Origin: an uncultured Lacihabitans sp.
GTDB taxonomy: Bacteria; Bacteroidota; Bacteroidia; Cytophagales; Spirosomataceae
Assembly (NCBI GenBank): GCA_964423865.1
Contig: CAYRGN010000012.1
Span: 21,198-85,197, forward strand
Direction: 5' to 3'
DNA: 64,000 nucleotides
This document shows, in pieces, positions 11,004 through 19,531 of the stretch. The notes beneath the pieces were generated by a model. That model saw only the letters and a program-made list of their open reading frames with translations. It was not told the DNA's origin and did no database searches. How positions within the stretch are numbered: position 1 is the first letter of the stretch; each line of letters begins with the position of its first letter. Made by a program: the position numbers and the translations under genes.

Positions 11004-11261
11004 ATGACACAGGATGTGAAAGTTACCCTCAGTTTTGATGCAGATGTAGTAGAGAGAGCCAAGTCTTTTGCTGCGTCTCAGGGCATCAGTTTGTCGCGTC
11101 TTACTGAATTTTTGTACGATAAGATTACTTCCGAGCCACGGCCTTACAAGAGCCTGGAAGATATTCCCCTGGCTGATTTTATAGGTCAGGTGGCCGAGAA
11201 AGAAGTGGTGTATGAAAAGCGTCGCAATATAAAGAAAACGTATTACGAATCAAGGAAATGA
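11004..11261 (+). CDS. DUF6364 family (RHH-like) antitoxin
   Basis: 'KVTLSFDADVVERAKSFAASQGISLSRLTE'; ATGA overlap with the PIN gene. Confidence 0.8.
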   Translation: MTQDVKVTLSFDADVVERAKSFAASQGISLSRLTEFLYDKITSEPRPYKSLEDIPLADFIGQVAEKEVVYEKRRNIKKTYYESRK

Positions 11262-11674
11262 AGCTGTTTGTAGATGCGAATGTCATTGTATCCGTATTCA
11301 ATAATGAGCTGCCTCTCTTTCCGTATTCTTCCAGAATTTTGAGTTTGTCGCAATGGGATAAAAAATATACCCTGGCTACTACCACGCTTTGCCTGGCTAT
11401 TGCCTTTTATTTCTCTGAAAAAAGATGCGGGACGCGCAGAAGTCTTGAAAAGATAAAAACACTCGTACGGTATATGGAAATACTTCCGGTGGGGCCGGAA
11501 GAAAATCAGGCAGTATGCGCCAATCCGGTGATCCGGGATTATGAAGACGGGTTACAGTATTATGCGGCCCGCCACGGAGGTTGCAACTTTATTATTACCG
11601 AAGATAAAAGTGGCTTTTATTATTCGGAGATTCCGGTTTGCGGCTCCAGGGAGTTTTTGTTGAATTATATGTGA
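11258..11674 (+). CDS. PIN domain (VapC-like) toxin
   Basis: 'LFVDANVI', 'DYEDGLQYYAA', 'IITEDK'. Confidence 0.88.
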   Translation: MKLFVDANVIVSVFNNELPLFPYSSRILSLSQWDKKYTLATTTLCLAIAFYFSEKRCGTRRSLEKIKTLVRYMEILPVGPEENQAVCANPVIRDYEDGLQYYAARHGGCNFIITEDKSGFYYSEIPVCGSREFLLNYM

Positions 11675-13175: not shown

Positions 13176-13475
13176 TCAGGCCAGAGCAGATTCGAAATGA
13201 CGGATGGAGGCTCGGTCTACTTTTTGTTCCGCATGCCACAAATCGTAATTTAATTGAAGATTTAGCCAGAATTCAGCGGTATTTCCAAAAGCTTCTGAGA
13301 GTTTTACTGCCAATTCGGGGCTGATTCCCGCGTGTTCATTGACTACATTCGACAGATTAGGTCGGGTTATGCCAAGCCCTTGGGCGACCTCGGTAATGGT
13401 TAAGCCTCTTTCCTTAATGTAATCTTCCCGTAAAATTTCTCCCGGATGAACGGGAGGTAATCCTCTTTTTAACAT
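13176..13475 (-). CDS. higA: HigA antitoxin (HTH)
   Basis: 'PVHPGEILREDY', 'ISPELAVKLSEAFG..AEFWLNLQ..YDL'. Confidence 0.92.
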   Translation of the reverse strand: MLKRGLPPVHPGEILREDYIKERGLTITEVAQGLGITRPNLSNVVNEHAGISPELAVKLSEAFGNTAEFWLNLQLNYDLWHAEQKVDRASIRHFESALA

Positions 13476-13491
13476 ATACCTTTTTTGCGTT

Positions 13492-13770
13492 TTAATGGTA
13501 ATCCAGATAATCTACATCGTACACGTCTCCCGCTTTAAAACGGAATATGATCCGGTAGTTTGGGGAAATTGAAATCGCCCAAAAACCGGCGTAGTTATTC
13601 TTCAGCAGGTGGATGCCTGAACCCATTTGCAGGAGGTCACTTTCTGACCTCACAGCCTCCAACTGATCTAAAATACGGTGAATCTTGCGAAGGTATTGAC
13701 TTGGTAATTTCGATCCGTCAGAGGTTTCGTAAAATTTTCTCAGGCCTTTGTGTTGGATGTTTATGATCAT
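13492..13770 (-). CDS. higB: HigB toxin (RelE/ParE family)
   Basis: 'HKGLRKFYE', 'NYRIIFRF', terminal 'DYH'; upstream of higA. Confidence 0.9.
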   Translation of the reverse strand: MIINIQHKGLRKFYETSDGSKLPSQYLRKIHRILDQLEAVRSESDLLQMGSGIHLLKNNYAGFWAISISPNYRIIFRFKAGDVYDVDYLDYH

Positions 13771-13947
13771 AACGAAAGTGTATGGTGTAATGTTACGCAA
13801 TACGCATTTTTAAATAGGAGATTTTGGAAATTCCAAAATTTTCAAAGATAGATTGTGCTTGACAAATAACGTATTTCCTTTCTGTAACTTTCTTAACTGT
13901 AGATAATTTCGATATTGCTTGTAATCAAATTTTATATATTTAAGAAT

Positions 13948-13993
13948 AAAAGTACTGAAATACTTTTTTATTTAAAATTTGTATTTACCTTTG
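13948..13993 (+). promoter_or_regulatory. Promoter of ric/DUF2249 cluster with palindromic operator candidate
   Basis: AAAAGTA-N6-TACTTTT (13948-67) upstream of TACCTTTG -7 (13986-93). Confidence 0.5.
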
Positions 13994-14025: not shown

Positions 14026-15234
14026 ATGCCAACAGCGACGGAAAACATCATCAACGTTCAGGAACTGGAGCCCAGGTTAAGACACCAAACCATCTTCAAT
14101 GTATTCAATACACTTGGGGAAGGCGAGTATCTGATTATTCATAACAACCATGACCCCATGCCCGTCAATTACCAGCTGATGAACTTACGCGGAAATATCT
14201 TTTCATGGGAATACCTCCAGCAAGGACCTGAACGGTGGGACGTGAAAGTCACCCGCCAGGTGCCGCCGGTTCCCACCGAGACAGACGGTGATCTTATTTT
14301 GAATATTCCCGCCCTGGAACCTCAGCAAAAACATGCCCTGATTTTTCATATTTTTGATCAGCTCGAAGCCGGAGAAACGTTTATTATACATAACGACCAC
14401 GACCCTAAGCCGGTATATTACCAACTAAAAGGGGAGAGGGGCGATGTCTTTACCTGGGAATATTTGAACGAAGGCCCCCAATGGTGGGATATCCGGGTTA
14501 CGAAAAAGGCAGAGGAGATACAGGAAACCATAGGAGAGATCGTAGCGAAAGACATTAGCAAAACTACAGTATTTAAAAAATATGGAATAGACTTCTGCTG
14601 CAACGGAAACCGGTCGGTGAAGGAAGCCTGTGAGGCAAAAGGACTTGATTACAAACAGGTGGTAGAAGAGCTGAACCAGGTTTCCGGGAACGTGACGGGC
14701 AACAGCCAGTTGAATTACGACGAGTGGAACCTGGATTTCCTGGCCGATTATGTAGTGAATACCCACCACCAGTATGTACGCAAATACCTGCCTGAAATTG
14801 TGCAGTACATGAATAAAGTGGAGCAGGTGCACGGAGCGCATCACCCGGAACTGGCCTTGATGAAAGTCCAGGTAGATAAAATAGAGGCGGAGCTTACTGC
14901 CCACATGAAAGAGGAAGAAACTTTGCTCTTTCCCCTGATAAAAGAGATTGTAAAAGTAAAAAATGAGGGATTAGTCTATACCAAAGCGCCGGGAGAGACT
15001 TTCCAGGTATTGGTGGAAGAAACCGAAAAGGAACACGATTCGGTAGGCAGAGCCCTGGAACAGATCAGGAAGCTGAATCACGATTATGAGATTCCGGAAG
15101 ATGCCTGTACGAGTTATAAACTCTTATACAAAATGCTGGAAGAGCTGGAAAATGATTTGTTTACCCATATTCACCTGGAAAATAATATTTTATTTGTCAA
15201 AGCGAGAGCGATAGAGAAGGAATTGCTGAATTGA
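14026..15234 (+). CDS. ric: Iron-sulfur cluster repair di-iron protein (Ric/YtfE/ScdA) with two N-terminal DUF2249 domains
   Basis: 'HNNHDPMP' and 'HNDHDPKP' repeats; ScdA_N 'YGIDFCCNG'; di-iron ligands 'HHQY', 'HMKEEE', 'EHD', 'HIHLENNILF'; start placed downstream of the promoter. Confidence 0.88.
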   Translation: MPTATENIINVQELEPRLRHQTIFNVFNTLGEGEYLIIHNNHDPMPVNYQLMNLRGNIFSWEYLQQGPERWDVKVTRQVPPVPTETDGDLILNIPALEPQQKHALIFHIFDQLEAGETFIIHNDHDPKPVYYQLKGERGDVFTWEYLNEGPQWWDIRVTKKAEEIQETIGEIVAKDISKTTVFKKYGIDFCCNGNRSVKEACEAKGLDYKQVVEELNQVSGNVTGNSQLNYDEWNLDFLADYVVNTHHQYVRKYLPEIVQYMNKVEQVHGAHHPELALMKVQVDKIEAELTAHMKEEETLLFPLIKEIVKVKNEGLVYTKAPGETFQVLVEETEKEHDSVGRALEQIRKLNHDYEIPEDACTSYKLLYKMLEELENDLFTHIHLENNILFVKARAIEKELLN

Positions 15235-15247
15235 ATTTTACAGGAAT

Positions 15248-16075
15248 GTGATGACCATTAACGAACAAACCAAAATCGCGGCATTGCTGAAACATCACCC
15301 CGATGCCCTGGAGGCCATCGTCTCCCTCAGTCCGGATTTTAAGAAACTCCGGAACCCGGTACTGAGGAGGCTGATGGCGGGTAGAACGAGTATTGGTATG
15401 GCTTCCAAAATCGGTGGGTGTACACCTGACGATTTTTTCCGGGTGCTGGCTCCCCTGGGTTTTGTGTCCGATGTGTCGTCCGGGGAAAGTGAGGAATTGC
15501 CTGTACGGAAGCCTCGGCCCGACTATCTCCGGAACATTTCCCCGGAGCGGTTGATTCAGTTTGACGTCAGGGAAATGCTGGCCGAGGGGACGGACCCTTT
15601 GAAGATGATACAGGAAAAAGTAAAGGCCCTGAATCCCGGAGAAGTTTTGACCATCGTGAATACATTTGAACCCGTTCCCCTGATACGCTTACTGGAAAGA
15701 AAAGGGTTTGAAACCTGGGTCAATGCGATAGACGAAGAAACCATAGAGACCTATTTCTTCCGAAAAGTCGAGGTGGAAGCCCCCGAAGAGGTGGCCGATG
15801 ATATACCGGAAACCGCCGGAGATTGGGACAGCCTGGTCAATCGTTTCAAAAATCGCCTGGAGGAAATCGATGTACGCGAAATGGAAATGCCCGGCCCTAT
15901 GATGACCATCCTGGAAAAACTGGAGGTGCTGACCCCGGACAAAGCTCTGTTCGTACATCATAAAAGAATTCCTGTATTTTTACTGACCGAACTGAAAGAC
16001 CGCCAATTTGACTACCGGATCAGGGAGGTCGGGGAAGGGGAGGTGCATCTGATGATTTTCAGGCAAATGGATTAA
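15248..16075 (+). CDS. DUF1858 + 2x DUF2249 domain protein
   Basis: N-terminal 'LRNPVLRRLMAGRTSI'; 'FDVREML..NTFEPVPL' and 'IDVREMEMPGPM..HHKRIP'. Confidence 0.75.
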   Translation: MMTINEQTKIAALLKHHPDALEAIVSLSPDFKKLRNPVLRRLMAGRTSIGMASKIGGCTPDDFFRVLAPLGFVSDVSSGESEELPVRKPRPDYLRNISPERLIQFDVREMLAEGTDPLKMIQEKVKALNPGEVLTIVNTFEPVPLIRLLERKGFETWVNAIDEETIETYFFRKVEVEAPEEVADDIPETAGDWDSLVNRFKNRLEEIDVREMEMPGPMMTILEKLEVLTPDKALFVHHKRIPVFLLTELKDRQFDYRIREVGEGEVHLMIFRQMD

Positions 16076-16103
16076 TTCAACACGCGTACATTCTGACGGA
16101 CTC

Positions 16104-17360
16104 ATGATCATAGGCGGATTACAAAAAACAACCAACTATAAAGTGGTATTGCCCTTTTACCTCTATGCCTCTCTGGGCTTTTTGGGGGGGACTTTACTGC
16201 TTTTGGGGAGTACGGAGGTAGCGGGCGCCCATTATTTTAATCCCGCCACGCTGGCCATCACCCACACCATGGCCCTCGCCTGGGGTACCATGATGATTTT
16301 CGGGGCTTCCCACCAACTATTGCCGGTGCTGGTGGAAGGAAAGCTGGACAGTGACCTCCTGGCTTACCTGACCCTGGTTTTTGCCGGGGTGGGCATCCCG
16401 ATCCTCGTCTATGGATTTTACGTTTTTGACACTGGACTGCCCATGCAGGCAGGCGGTATTTTGGTGAATATTGCCATTGTTTTTTATGGGGTCAATGTCT
16501 TTCGAAGCGCGTTTAAAAGCGGAAAGCGGAATGTGCATGCCTGGTTTGTCATCACGGCCACGGTATGGTTATTGGCCACCACCCTGATGGGACTGGTATT
16601 GGTTTTAAATTTCAGTACGCCGATATTGCCCGGCAACTCGGTAGAATACCTTTCGGTGCACGCTCACCTGGGCATTGTGGGATGGTTCGTACTCCTGGTA
16701 ATCGGGGTGGGTTCCCGCCTGATTCCCATGTTCCTGATTTCCAAGTATACGAGTAATCGTACCCTTTGGTGGATTTTTGCTTTGTTGAATAGTGCTTTGG
16801 CCGGTTTTTCCTGCCTTTATCTGGGCGGACACTCCCCAGTATTGTTTTATATACCGGTGGCAATGGCAGGGGTGGCGGTTTTTTTATTTGGGCGTTATTG
16901 CTACAAAGCCTACGGGGTCAGAATACGGAAAAGTGTGGACGAACAGGTGAAAACCTCCCTGGTTTCGGTGGCGCAAATGGGGCTGCCTTTGGTGGCTCTG
17001 CTGCTCGCCCTGGCTTTTCTGCCGAACGAGAAAATGGCTTTGGTATATGGATTTTGTATCTTTTTCGGTTGGCTGACGGCCATAATTTTGGGAATGACTT
17101 TTAAAACCCTGCCTTTTATCGTTTGGAACCGGGTGTACCATAACCGGGCCCACCAGGGCAAAACGCCCGCGCCCAAAGAACTGTTTAACGAAAATATCTA
17201 TACGGTGATGTGGTATACCTACGTGGGCGGTTTTGGCCTGTTTGTAACGGGCATCCTCCTGCTGCATCCCTGGCTTTTAAAAGGTGGGGCCCTGGCCCTG
17301 GTGATTTCTGCCGTATTGTACGTGTGGAATGTGATGATTACATTTACGCACAAGCATTGA
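16104..17360 (+). CDS. Polytopic membrane protein, heme-copper oxidase subunit I-like / NnrS-like
   Basis: About 12 TM; three repeats of (H)-x5-W-x6-G-x5-[LI]-P; no HPxVY or HH CuB motifs. Confidence 0.65.
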   Translation: MIIGGLQKTTNYKVVLPFYLYASLGFLGGTLLLLGSTEVAGAHYFNPATLAITHTMALAWGTMMIFGASHQLLPVLVEGKLDSDLLAYLTLVFAGVGIPILVYGFYVFDTGLPMQAGGILVNIAIVFYGVNVFRSAFKSGKRNVHAWFVITATVWLLATTLMGLVLVLNFSTPILPGNSVEYLSVHAHLGIVGWFVLLVIGVGSRLIPMFLISKYTSNRTLWWIFALLNSALAGFSCLYLGGHSPVLFYIPVAMAGVAVFLFGRYCYKAYGVRIRKSVDEQVKTSLVSVAQMGLPLVALLLALAFLPNEKMALVYGFCIFFGWLTAIILGMTFKTLPFIVWNRVYHNRAHQGKTPAPKELFNENIYTVMWYTYVGGFGLFVTGILLLHPWLLKGGALALVISAVLYVWNVMITFTHKH

Positions 17361-17387
17361 ACCAGCTGATAGCTAAACTTTACCCGT

Positions 17388-17705
17388 ATGAAAACAAACA
17401 ACGATGAAAAATGTGCGCATGCGCTGAAAGACCTGTACAATGTGTACGATCCGGAGATTGGTTTAAATATAGTAGACCTGGGATTGGTGTATGAAATCAC
17501 CTTTGATGAAGAAAGGAAAGGGCTGGACTGCGCCATGACTTTGACTTCCCAGTTTTGCCCTATGGGCGAAGCCATCACCACCGACGCCCGCGATTCCCTG
17601 TCCGGCTCGTTTCCCGGCTGGGAAGTACAGGTCAATCTGACCTTTGACCCGCCGTGGGACGTCAGCAAAATTACACCGGAGGGAAAAGCGTTTTTAGGAC
17701 ATTAA
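17388..17705 (+). CDS. DUF59 (SufT/PaaD-like) Fe-S assembly protein
   Basis: 'VYDPEIGLNIVDLGLVY', 'MTLTSQFCPMG', 'TFDPPW'. Confidence 0.9.
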   Translation: MKTNNDEKCAHALKDLYNVYDPEIGLNIVDLGLVYEITFDEERKGLDCAMTLTSQFCPMGEAITTDARDSLSGSFPGWEVQVNLTFDPPWDVSKITPEGKAFLGH

Positions 17706-17715
17706 ACCTAACGAT

Positions 17716-18147
17716 ATGCTAAGTCATACCTGCAAAACAGCCATCAAGGCCGTCATTTATTTGTCCGGGAAAAGCAAAGACGGAGACAAAACCAATATCC
17801 GGGAAATATCCGAACGCATCAATGCCAGCGAGCATACGGTGGGTAAAATCCTGCAATTACTGGCCAGGAAGAGGATCATCAATAGCTTAAAGGGCCCTGC
17901 GGGTGGTTTTTATCTTCGGGAAGAGCAGCAGGAGCAGGCGCTGATTGCCATTGTGGAAGCCATTGAAGGCGACCGGCTTTTTACGGAATGCGGGTTGGGC
18001 CTGACCAAATGTTCCGCCACACATCCCTGTCCCATTCACAACGAATACAAAGTGGCGAGAGAACTTATGGAAAAAATTTTCAGGGAAAGAAAAGTGGGCG
18101 AACTCTGCGGTTCGGTGACCCACGGACTTTCCTATCTTATCGATTAA
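17716..18147 (+). CDS. Rrf2 family transcriptional regulator with 3 Cys
   Basis: wHTH 'SLKGPAGGF'; 'ECGLGLTKCSATHPCPIH'. Confidence 0.9.
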   Translation: MLSHTCKTAIKAVIYLSGKSKDGDKTNIREISERINASEHTVGKILQLLARKRIINSLKGPAGGFYLREEQQEQALIAIVEAIEGDRLFTECGLGLTKCSATHPCPIHNEYKVARELMEKIFRERKVGELCGSVTHGLSYLID

Positions 18148-18159
18148 ACTTTACAAAAA

Positions 18160-18915
18160 ATGATACTTGAAAAAAATACCAGCGGAGAACTGGATGTAAG
18201 GGTATTGGTCCCCATTCAAAGGCATGAATTATTGATACGGCTTTTTAAGGATTTACCTGTGGGCGAAGATTTTGTGTTTGTCAATGACCACGACCCCATT
18301 CCTTTATTTTATGAGTTTCGCTCCATTTACGGGGATGTGGTGGGCTGGGAATACCTGAACCGGGGCGGACGGGAATGGAAAGTGAGAGTGACCCGGCTGG
18401 AGGAGTCGAAAGGCGTGGAACTGGAAAATGTTTCTACATTGCTTGACCTGAGGAAGGCCGGTAAAGACGAGTGGAAACAGATTGTATTTCACCGTTACGG
18501 CATGATGGAGCAGAATACTACCATGGAATTGATCTCGGCGGAAGATCCAACGGAGATTCACGGCATTTTTATTCATAAATTTGAGGGAAAACATAAGTGG
18601 ATTTATAAAAAGAAGTCGGAAGGAGAATTTGTGGTGCATATTACCAAGCAAGATAACAGCGGTTTGGGTGACGACGGCTTCTCGGTAGTCAACGAATTTG
18701 ATTTGAGACCCTTTCCACCTACCGAGAGACATGAAATGTTTTACCGGGCCTTTGCCGACATACGCGCCGGGGAAGCGTTTGAGTTCATCAATGACCATGA
18801 TCCCAAACCCCTGTATTACCAGATGGAAGCGGAGAGTAAGGAACCTTTCCGCTGGGAATACCTGGAGAAGGGACCCGACACCTGGAAAGTGCGTGTCACA
18901 AAAGTCACGGTATAA
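18160..18915 (+). CDS. Triple DUF2249 domain protein
   Basis: 'VNDHDPIPL..WEYLNRG..WKV', degenerate middle copy, 'INDHDPKPL..WEYLEKGP..WKV'. Confidence 0.8.
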   Translation: MILEKNTSGELDVRVLVPIQRHELLIRLFKDLPVGEDFVFVNDHDPIPLFYEFRSIYGDVVGWEYLNRGGREWKVRVTRLEESKGVELENVSTLLDLRKAGKDEWKQIVFHRYGMMEQNTTMELISAEDPTEIHGIFIHKFEGKHKWIYKKKSEGEFVVHITKQDNSGLGDDGFSVVNEFDLRPFPPTERHEMFYRAFADIRAGEAFEFINDHDPKPLYYQMEAESKEPFRWEYLEKGPDTWKVRVTKVTV

Positions 18916-18942
18916 AGAAGTAAGCAGCAGTTCGCCACAGGA

Positions 18943-19016
18943 CTCACAGCTCATAGCTCACAGCTCATAGCTCACAGCTCATAGCTCACAGCTCATAGCT
19001 CATAGCTCATCACTCA
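18943..19016. repeat. Heptamer tract alternating CTCACAG/CTCATAG (about 10 units)
   Basis: Read directly from the sequence. Confidence 0.95.
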
Positions 19017-19027
19017 AATATATACCC

Positions 19028-19531
19028 ATGAACAAAGCCTTGTACGATTTCTTTACGAATGATCATCGGCGTATCGAAACCATTTTCGACGAAGCCACCC
19101 GGGATAAAGATCGGGTAGACCTGGAAAAATACCACCATTTCAGGGTAGGTTTGCTCACGCACATCAAAATGGAGGAAAAGATACTCTTTGTGGCGGCGCA
19201 GAAGGCCAATAGAGGAGAGCCGCTTCCGCTTCAGGCTAAACTGAGGCTGGACCATGGCGCCTTGACCACCCTGCTGGTATGCTATCCGTCTCCTGAAGTG
19301 ATTCGGGTCATTCAGCATGTTCTGGAAGTACACGATATCCTGGAAGAAGAGGAGGGAGGTATGTATGAGGTCTGTGCTAAACTCACCCAAAATGAGACAA
19401 GGGCCATACTGGAAGAGCTGGAAAAAGTGACCCTGGTGCCGGTACACCCCTTCAATGAAGCCGATTATGTGCTGGACGTAGCGAAGCGCTCCCTGCAAAG
19501 GGCCGGATTTGATTTTGACGATATAATCTAA
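19028..19531 (+). CDS. Hemerythrin-domain protein
   Basis: 'DHRRIE', 'HIKMEEKILF', 'DHG', 'HDILEE' HHE-type ligand spacing. Confidence 0.8.
   Translation: MNKALYDFFTNDHRRIETIFDEATRDKDRVDLEKYHHFRVGLLTHIKMEEKILFVAAQKANRGEPLPLQAKLRLDHGALTTLLVCYPSPEVIRVIQHVLEVHDILEEEEGGMYEVCAKLTQNETRAILEELEKVTLVPVHPFNEADYVLDVAKRSLQRAGFDFDDII

Follow-up and report, generated by a model that had tools for sequence, protein, structure and literature searches.

A Rrf2-linked operon of Lacihabitans joining DUF2249 domains, Ric, an oxidase-like membrane protein, and DUF59

Operon layout, promoter region, and conservation

The window analyzed here is a 64,000-nucleotide (nt) stretch from an uncultured Lacihabitans sp. 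of the Bacteroidota (contig CAYRGN010000012.1), and its positions 14026-19531 hold seven co-oriented open reading frames (ORFs) on the + strand, called g1 to g7 in that order and separated by gaps of 13, 28, 27, 10, 12, and 112 nt. Gene identities were assigned through Pfam and NCBIfam searches of the window proteins. The first gene is a fusion, with two DUF2249 domains of the HDP type, similar to Thermus DrpA, in its N-terminal part (14026-14520, +; PF10006 twice) and Ric/YtfE, formed by ScdA_N and a di-iron hemerythrin-like domain, in its C-terminal part (14521-15234, +; TIGR03652, PF04405, and PF01814). It is followed by g2, a DrpB-like protein with DUF1858 and two degenerate DUF2249 domains (15248-16075, +), and by g3, a 12-helix membrane protein of the heme-copper-oxidase-homology (HCOH) group that lacks CuB ligands according to an AlphaFold (AF2) model and histidine conservation (16104-17360, +). 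The product of g4 (17388-17705, +; PF01883) is DUF59, the SufT/MIP18-type iron-sulfur (Fe-S) assembly helper domain, and that of g5 (17716-18147, +; PF02082 and TIGR00738) is a Rrf2-family regulator with Cys92, Cys99, Cys105, and His108. Two accessory genes close the operon: g6 (18160-18915, +; PF10006 three times), a lineage-specific gene for a triple DUF2249 protein (HDP type, degenerate, HDP type), and g7 (19028-19531, +), a divergent hemerythrin-like gene whose PF01814 score of 20.7 bits lies below the cut-off. According to a scan of the whole 3.59-Mb assembly, the seven DUF2249 domains of the operon are all those of the genome, and four of them (g1a, g1b, g6a, and g6c) bear the signature N(N/D)HDPxP...WEYL..G.

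Upstream of g1, the palindrome AAAAGTA-N6-TACTTTT at 13948-13967 (no strand) is a candidate Rrf2 operator, conserved upstream of related operons, and this is its only exact copy in the genome. Allowing one mismatch at most, 70 of 90 related loci have the shorter form AAAGTA-N6-TACTTT ahead of the first gene of the operon, and the palindrome is absent where the operon has no Rrf2 gene. Downstream of it, the box TACCTTTG (13986-13993, +) matches TAnnTTTG, the consensus of the Bacteroidetes -7 promoter box, which was searched for separately because a scan for sigma-70 promoters and terminators had been uninformative. In 67 of 73 loci, such a box follows the palindrome at a distance of up to 50 nt, usually 15 to 18 nt, against a background of 2.4% of random 50-nt windows. 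This spacing sets the palindrome over the -33 region, the expected position of a repressor, from which we infer that g5 probably autoregulates the operon through the palindrome. A wider regulon was considered and rejected, because the genome holds just one exact copy of the operator and the near matches hardly exceed those of a reversed-pattern control (75 versus 56).

Regarding transcription, one 4,034-nt contig of a compost metatranscriptome, approximately 95% identical to the window, spans 14080-18115, from just inside g1 to near the end of g5. The word depth in the metatranscriptome was 25 for g1 to g5 versus 3 to 4 for g6, g7, and the upstream flank (approximately 6-fold). The contig is compatible with a g1-g5 transcript, and g7 perhaps has its own promoter, given the 112-nt gap that precedes it. 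In a related strain, one contig of the same metatranscriptome lacks 62 nt of the spacer between g6 and g7 (18928-18991); thus, this intergenic region varies between strains.

The g3 family was present in 22 of 400 other sampled Bacteroidota genomes. The loci compared here, about 100 in all, comprise the 17-kb surroundings in 20 of these g3-positive genomes and 80 named loci that were retrieved through a DrpB-like profile, all 80 from Bacteroidota. All of them were scanned with hidden Markov models built from the window proteins, and the denominators are the loci with enough sequence. HCOH directly follows the DrpB-like gene in 87 of 89 loci, DUF59 follows HCOH in 86 of 88, and Rrf2 follows DUF59 in 71 of 86. 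A DUF2249 gene lies upstream in 74 of 85 loci; it is a Ric fusion in 64 of the 85, with 1, 2, 3, 4, or 5 DUF2249 repeats in 33, 6, 17, 7, and 1 loci, respectively. The triple-DUF2249 gene (downstream in 12/84 loci) and the g7-like hemerythrin gene (8/82) are lineage-specific extras. The closest locus, from a metagenome-assembled genome (MAG) of Leadbetterella byssophila, has all seven genes, with a g2 that is 95% identical. Since the loci are mutually related and were chosen through DrpB or HCOH, these counts show synteny and not independent events. Such a recurrence of one gene order, in about 100 loci of Bacteroidota, makes the operon far more than a chance arrangement. Judging from the sequences, it is the Bacteroidota form of a little-understood module made of DrpA/DrpB, HCOH, and DUF59, which is known from denitrifiers.

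The initial annotation of this DNA had described seven co-oriented and closely spaced genes with seven DUF2249 domains in three proteins, four of them carrying the HDP/WEY motif, and its reading depended on the genes being co-conserved and co-transcribed. The ORF positions and gaps agree with the layout, and Pfam, the whole-genome scan, and the alignment give the same domain count. Furthermore, the neighborhood survey confirms the co-conservation, and co-transcription is probable according to the short gaps, the single operator and promoter, and the metatranscriptome contig over g1 to g5.

Loci of the Flavobacteriia type have no Ric fusion and carry instead a stand-alone DrpA-like protein of approximately 80 amino acids (aa). 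They add a 151-aa four-helix HCOH, a Pyr_redox_2 flavoprotein, hemerythrins, and Crp/Fnr regulators, as well as NosD/NosL in three of them. The 151-aa protein is encoded after DUF59 (L042:9535-9987, L047:9130-9582, and equivalents in L045-L050), often with the flavoprotein gene next; its weak Pfam COX1 match covers different thirds of the model in different loci, as a single-unit HCOH type. In Sphingobacterium sp. FBM7-1 (L097), uniquely among the 80 loci, the DrpB-like gene is isolated, and the 7 kb to each side of it hold no HCOH, DUF59, Rrf2, or Ric gene. In another genome (G063, L032:11517-12542), a NirK-like cupredoxin gene lies directly upstream of the Ric-DUF2249 gene; it scores 176 bits, below the TIGR02376 cut-off of 296.

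DUF2249 domains, the membrane protein, and the Fe-S-related proteins

The Ric-matching C-terminal stretch of g1 (237 aa) scores 241.6 bits with TIGR03652, above the cut-off of 204.7; both ScdA_N and the hemerythrin domain match, and H/E-rich motifs are visible in the translation. Ric/YtfE is induced by nitric oxide (NO) and protects aconitase and fumarase (PMC9268430); the text of that 2022 review has no match to "DUF" or "fused," so DUF2249 fusions go unmentioned there. The N-terminal HDP-type domains of g1 have no signal peptide, and this, together with their fusion to a cytoplasmic enzyme, predicts that they are cytoplasmic here.

An alignment of 23 HDP-type domains revealed nine invariant residues (P13, H17, N37, H39, P41, P43, Y46, W58, and W68) and two near-invariant ones (D38 and D40). 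Cysteine is absent from all seven DUF2249 domains of the window, and the 23 domains have no conserved Cys column. The structural model of the HDP-type domain (predicted local distance difference test [pLDDT], 88) has a beta-alpha-beta-alpha-beta-beta fold of the TusA/SirA type. Its best structural matches are TusA, YeeD/TsuB, and SirA-like proteins, with template modeling (TM) scores of 0.66 to 0.76, and one match is the YeeD-YeeE complex, in which a TusA-like protein is docked on a membrane protein. Sequence searches of the PDB with DUF2249 and with HCOH gave nothing useful; the sole useful match was that of the DUF1858 part of g2 with 2fi0. The Pfam TusA model (PF01206) reached at best 18.9 bits (cut-off, 28.6), in g2 alone and without the Cys of CPxP. 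This weak match and the domain alignment relate the catalytic Cys of TusA to P13 in the HDP type and to a Met in g2. Residue H17 lies one helical turn past that position and N37-D38-H39-D40 at the N-terminus of helix 2. Such a placement indicates that a His/Asp site likely takes the place of the TusA thiol, with a clustering in space deduced from the helix N-terminus positions and not from model coordinates. Metal binding through the two invariant His and the two Asp is plausible. No TusA gene (PF01206) was found at an E value of ≤0.01 in the source assembly, which is 95% complete.

The g2 protein (275 aa) combines PF08984 with two PF10006 domains, the architecture of Thermus DrpB, which has DUF1858 and two DUF2249 domains in 273 aa and is membrane attached (PMC6282519). 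The likeness to Thermus DrpA/DrpB rests on architecture and size and not on sequence similarity. In an alignment of DrpB-like proteins, the DUF2249 domains of g2 are degenerate, with N-x-F-E-P-x-P and MPxP...H-x-R-x-P in place of the HDP signature, and there is no conserved Cys.

The g3 protein (418 aa) matches no Pfam or NCBIfam family, including COX1 (PF00115). However, its AF2 model, built from a 21-sequence alignment (pLDDT, 90), shows the 12-helix fold of subunit I of heme-copper oxidases (HCO), and Foldseek matches it to the catalytic subunits of cbb3, aa3, and bo3 oxidases and NO reductases (CcoN, NorB, and CoxI; TM, 0.6 to 0.74). Its only invariant His are H54 and H186, with H188 kept in 18 of 21 sequences, and thus g3 lacks the six-His ligand set for two hemes and CuB/FeB of oxidases and NO reductases (NOR). 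In a profile comparison, helices 1 to 3 of g3 align with helices 9 to 11 of the CcoN of the same genome, where H54 falls on the second His of the heme-binding HVH motif, and helix 6 of g3 carries a separate HAH. Pei, Li, Kinch, and Grishin reportedly defined in 2014 three-unit HCOH proteins with 12 helices, two conserved His, and best similarity to HCO helices 9 to 12. In Vibrio, iron-dependent metabolism is shielded from NO by NnrS, which is also an HCOH protein. The g3 protein is not NnrS because it has no Pfam NnrS (PF05940) match at an E value of ≤0.01, and NnrS is just a distant language-model neighbor (0.84).

The g3 family forms 4,336 clusters at 50% identity (E ≤ 0.001), and over 2,400 relatives, the majority of them from Bacteroidota, bear the wrong name "cytochrome c oxidase subunit I." Natural fusions with DUF59 at the HCOH C-terminus occur in 5 of the best 150 HCOH representatives, one of them, in a Saprospiraceae MAG, again behind a DrpB-like gene. 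Both termini of HCO subunit I are on the cytoplasmic side, so the DUF59 fused at the C-terminus would also be cytoplasmic. The best-conserved HCOH loops (R273/R275/D279 and positions 337-361) would face the cytoplasm as well, by the positive-inside rule. An 862-aa metagenomic representative of double length (P0152), with two matched stretches and no Pfam match, is possibly a tandem HCOH fusion.

The PF01883 score of g4 is 44.3 bits (cut-off, 23.5), and its D21-P22-E23 and C57-P58 are 100% conserved in 89 orthologues; its SufT score (TIGR03406) of 80.9 lies below the cut-off of 202.6 for the full-length equivalog. In g5, C92, C99, C105, and H108 are 99% conserved among 82 orthologues and would form an IscR-like Cys3His Fe-S ligand set. 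All equivalog scores of g5 lie far below their cut-offs (IscR, 48.5 versus 207.6; NsrR, 29.4 versus 182; suf_reg_Xantho, 59.3 versus 110.7).

As for the genomic context, the source genome encodes NirK above the family cut-off and a clade II NosZ; therefore, NO can arise endogenously. It also encodes two typical COX1 proteins and a divergent cbb3-like pair (G000:C41, L139:1030-3818) of a CcoN-like (599 aa) and a CcoO-like (330 aa) protein. With 233 bits against the cbb3 cut-off of 583, this pair is possibly an atypical C-family oxidase or NO reductase. The immediate neighbors of the operon are unrelated to it: two toxin-antitoxin pairs, a glucose/sorbosone dehydrogenase (GSDH), DUF6934, and AcnB on the opposite strand. 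The toxin-antitoxin-like pairs lie directly upstream and correspond to a HigB-like toxin with an HTH_3 antitoxin and to DUF6364 with a PIN_3 nuclease (13176-13800, −, and 11004-11674, +).

Part of the initial annotation, which saw a TusA-like DUF2249 carrier relaying iron or persulfide between a membrane component, Ric, and DUF59, holds and part does not. The HCO-like membrane protein was recovered in the AF2 fold of g3, the three-Cys Rrf2 in the conserved Cys92/99/105 and His108, and the TusA-like fold in the structure prediction and its matches; the fusions, in turn, join Ric with DUF2249 and the membrane protein with DUF59, next to the co-conservation and probable co-transcription described above. 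What falls is the persulfide relay, since the DUF2249 domains have no Cys, and AcnB as the linked target, whose adjacency recurs in 1 of 100 loci, a MAG of the same species; both candidates were rejected. The statement that DUF2249 has no defined function also overlooked the genetics of Thermus DrpA/DrpB (PMC6282519) and the induction data from haloarchaea, where denitrifying conditions induce all four DUF2249 genes of Haloferax, including one whose product is a fusion with an Mrp Fe-S carrier ATPase (PMC11218638).

Possible function and competing explanations

The Ric-DUF2249 and HCOH-DUF59 fusions, the invariant DrpB-HCOH-DUF59 order, and the single repressor and operator are four independent indications of a single physical system on the cytoplasmic side of the membrane. 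Our preferred explanation, which we hold at about an even chance, is a membrane-anchored system, autoregulated and de-repressible through Rrf2, that protects or repairs iron centers under nitrosative or oxidative stress. Holo-Rrf2 would repress the operon, and loss or nitrosylation of its Fe-S cluster, through NO from the cell's own NirK, oxidants, or iron shortage, would lift the repression. HCOH would serve as the membrane platform, probably with one b-type heme on H54 and H186/H188, and possibly as the site where electrons enter from the quinol pool. The conserved cytoplasmic loops of HCOH would be the docking sites of the DrpB-like adaptor and DUF59. The HDP-type domains might use their two invariant His and two Asp, at the site of the TusA Cys, as a binding site for Fe(II) or a different small ligand, to be delivered to, or taken from, the fused di-iron Ric domain, and DUF59 might hand on to Fe-S client proteins via its invariant Cys-Pro. 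Published work is in line with the maintenance of iron centers under NO, namely the induction of Ric and its protection of aconitase and fumarase, the poorly active nitrate reductase of Thermus drpAB mutants, the induced DUF2249 genes of Haloferax, and the role of NnrS in Vibrio.

The coexistence of single stand-alone domains with one to five fused repeats resembles metallochaperones and the HMA repeats of P-type ATPases, which suggests that a metal is handed off or buffered and not that a signal is sensed. A more specific form of the same explanation, tentative and clearly less probable than the general one, is that HDP-type DUF2249 constitutes a new class of cytoplasmic chaperone for iron or nitrosyl-iron on a TusA scaffold. 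With the heme b oxidase-like protein, the DrpB adaptor, and DUF59, it would form a membrane-anchored machine that feeds or clears iron at the Ric di-iron site and re-metallates NO-damaged Fe-S proteins. If so, Thermus DrpA/DrpB would become maintenance factors of metal centers and not nitrate sensors.

Several observations weigh against this explanation. The Thermus genetics were read as evidence of regulation through the sensing of nitrate, and DrpA was reported to be periplasmic (PMC6282519). The clustering of the His/Asp residues is deduced from sequence positions alone, and g5 scores below the IscR, NsrR, and SufR cut-offs, so that the signal proposed for it is tentative. The RNA-library contig carries no strand information and may derive from DNA contamination, so that a single transcript is unproven. 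Moreover, nirK does not co-occur with the module across the 400 Bacteroidota genomes (3/22 HCOH-positive versus 46/378 HCOH-negative genomes), and an association between them was rejected.

A first alternative is signaling of the DrpA/DrpB type. DUF2249 would sense nitrate, nitrite, or NO and, via the DrpB-like protein at the membrane protein, modulate regulators of N-oxide respiration, with Ric and DUF59 as co-regulated passengers. Deletion of drpAB in Thermus makes nar/dnr expression independent of nitrate, and DrpB is membrane attached there (PMC6282519, PMC7694296); g2 has the DrpB architecture, and some related loci adjoin Crp/Fnr, NosD, and NosL genes. However, the fusion of HDP-type domains to a cytoplasmic Ric, with no signal peptide and in one to five tandem copies, suits capacity or hand-off better, and the operon has its own DNA-binding regulator and operator. 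The lack of other operator sites in the genome leaves no wider regulon visible and, with the missing nirK co-occurrence, makes signaling unlikely in our view. Somewhat less probable again is a redox enzyme turning over NO or nitrite, in which a heme-bearing HCOH passes quinol electrons to Ric, acting as a nitrite reductase, and DUF2249 and the DrpB-like protein are adaptors for electrons or substrate. The HCO/NOR fold of g3 fits this idea, as does YtfE, reported as an NO-generating nitrite reductase (PMC9052748), and the Flavobacteriia-type loci add the flavoprotein and the four-helix HCOH. Likewise, no ORF of the source genome scored as a named NorB, and its third COX1 homologue is just cbb3-like. 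Nevertheless, g3 has two to three of the six His and misses the ligand set for CuB/FeB and a high-spin heme, DUF2249 and the DrpB-like protein have no redox-cofactor motif, and DUF59 with an Fe-S-sensing repressor fits maintenance better than catalysis.

The loss of drpAB in Thermus, where nitrate reductase protein is made with poor activity (PMC6282519), also brings to mind maturation factors for the metal centers of respiratory enzymes. Here, the HCOH scaffold would mimic oxidase subunit I during the insertion of heme, iron, or Fe-S into N-oxide reductases or oxidases, in line with its oxidase-like appearance, with DUF59 as an assembly-factor domain, and with the nos accessory genes near three loci. 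We regard this as improbable: in the window, no respiratory enzyme genes adjoin the operon, the module occurs in genomes without nirK, and the Ric fusion points to damage repair and not to first-time assembly. Finally, the TusA-like fold and the weak TusA match of g2 would suit a persulfide or sulfur carrier, a role that we consider scarcely credible for domains with Pro or Met at the position of the TusA Cys and with no Cys conserved in the HDP-type or DrpB-like alignments.

Some elements of this system are already known: DrpA/DrpB has been studied genetically, and earlier publications (references 36 and 37 of PMC11218638) associate DUF2249 with hemerythrin-like and HCO-like proteins. Specific to this work are the layout found in Bacteroidota, in which tandem DUF2249 repeats are joined to Ric, a terminal Rrf2 of IscR-like type whose operator is defined over -33, and the HCOH-DUF59 fusions, as well as alignments that clearly exclude a thiol-based TusA mechanism. 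Ric/YtfE, the NnrS-like oxidase homologues, DUF59, and DrpA/DrpB all occur widely and are each linked to NO stress or denitrification, and none has an agreed mechanism. The operon joins all four physically, through gene fusions, invariant synteny, and one repressor, and it offers short soluble domains for direct study as well as culturable carriers such as Arachidicoccus ginsenosidivorans Gsoil 809, Sphingobacterium sp. SGG-5, and Leadbetterella. If the iron-center maintenance explanation is true, it would account for the way in which bacteria maintain functional iron enzymes while they produce or encounter NO, give a function to DUF2249 (thousands of proteins), and revise the sensor model of Thermus DrpAB. 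If the genes are merely a co-regulated stress set, this would be an ordinary operon for NO or iron stress.

Comparison with known systems

Several components resemble known systems, with some departures from them. Canonical Ric/YtfE/ScdA/DnrN proteins have no N-terminal DUF2249 repeats, whereas g1 has two. The HDP-type domains share with TusA/SirA and YeeD(TsuB)-YeeE the fold and the idea that a small protein of the TusA type docks on a membrane protein; in contrast to those carriers, which have a catalytic Cys, conserved His/Asp occupy the site. Like the three-unit HCOH proteins reportedly defined by Pei et al., g3 has 12 helices, two conserved His, and similarity to HCO helices 9 to 12. HCOH proteins, including NnrS, show genomic association with DUF2249 and with NO/denitrification genes, and the four-helix paralogue of the Flavobacteriia-type loci is absent from this window.

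With IscR, NsrR, and SufR, g5 has in common the winged-helix Rrf2 fold and three Cys plus His, with the C-x5-C-x2-H spacing of IscR, although the first Cys spacing in g5 is x6. IscR-type regulators autoregulate from a promoter-overlapping palindrome, the arrangement that we infer for g5. To our knowledge, AAAGTA-N6-TACTTT is unlike the published IscR or NsrR boxes, and, unlike those of the three regulators, the regulon of g5 appears to be this one operon.

The closest parallel is the drpAB operon of Thermus thermophilus, located downstream of narCGHJIKT (Chahlafi et al. 2018; PMC6282519). The operon described here is neither beside nar nor a bicistronic pair downstream of it; its DrpA-like domains are fused in tandem to Ric, the HCOH, DUF59, and Rrf2 repressor genes follow, and control would be exerted by a Rrf2 operator and not by DnrT. 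Both systems place a DUF2249 protein with conserved His, a single domain in Thermus, before a protein of approximately 273 aa with DUF1858 and two DUF2249 domains, and DrpA/DrpB, too, is connected with N-oxide metabolism and with metalloenzyme activity.

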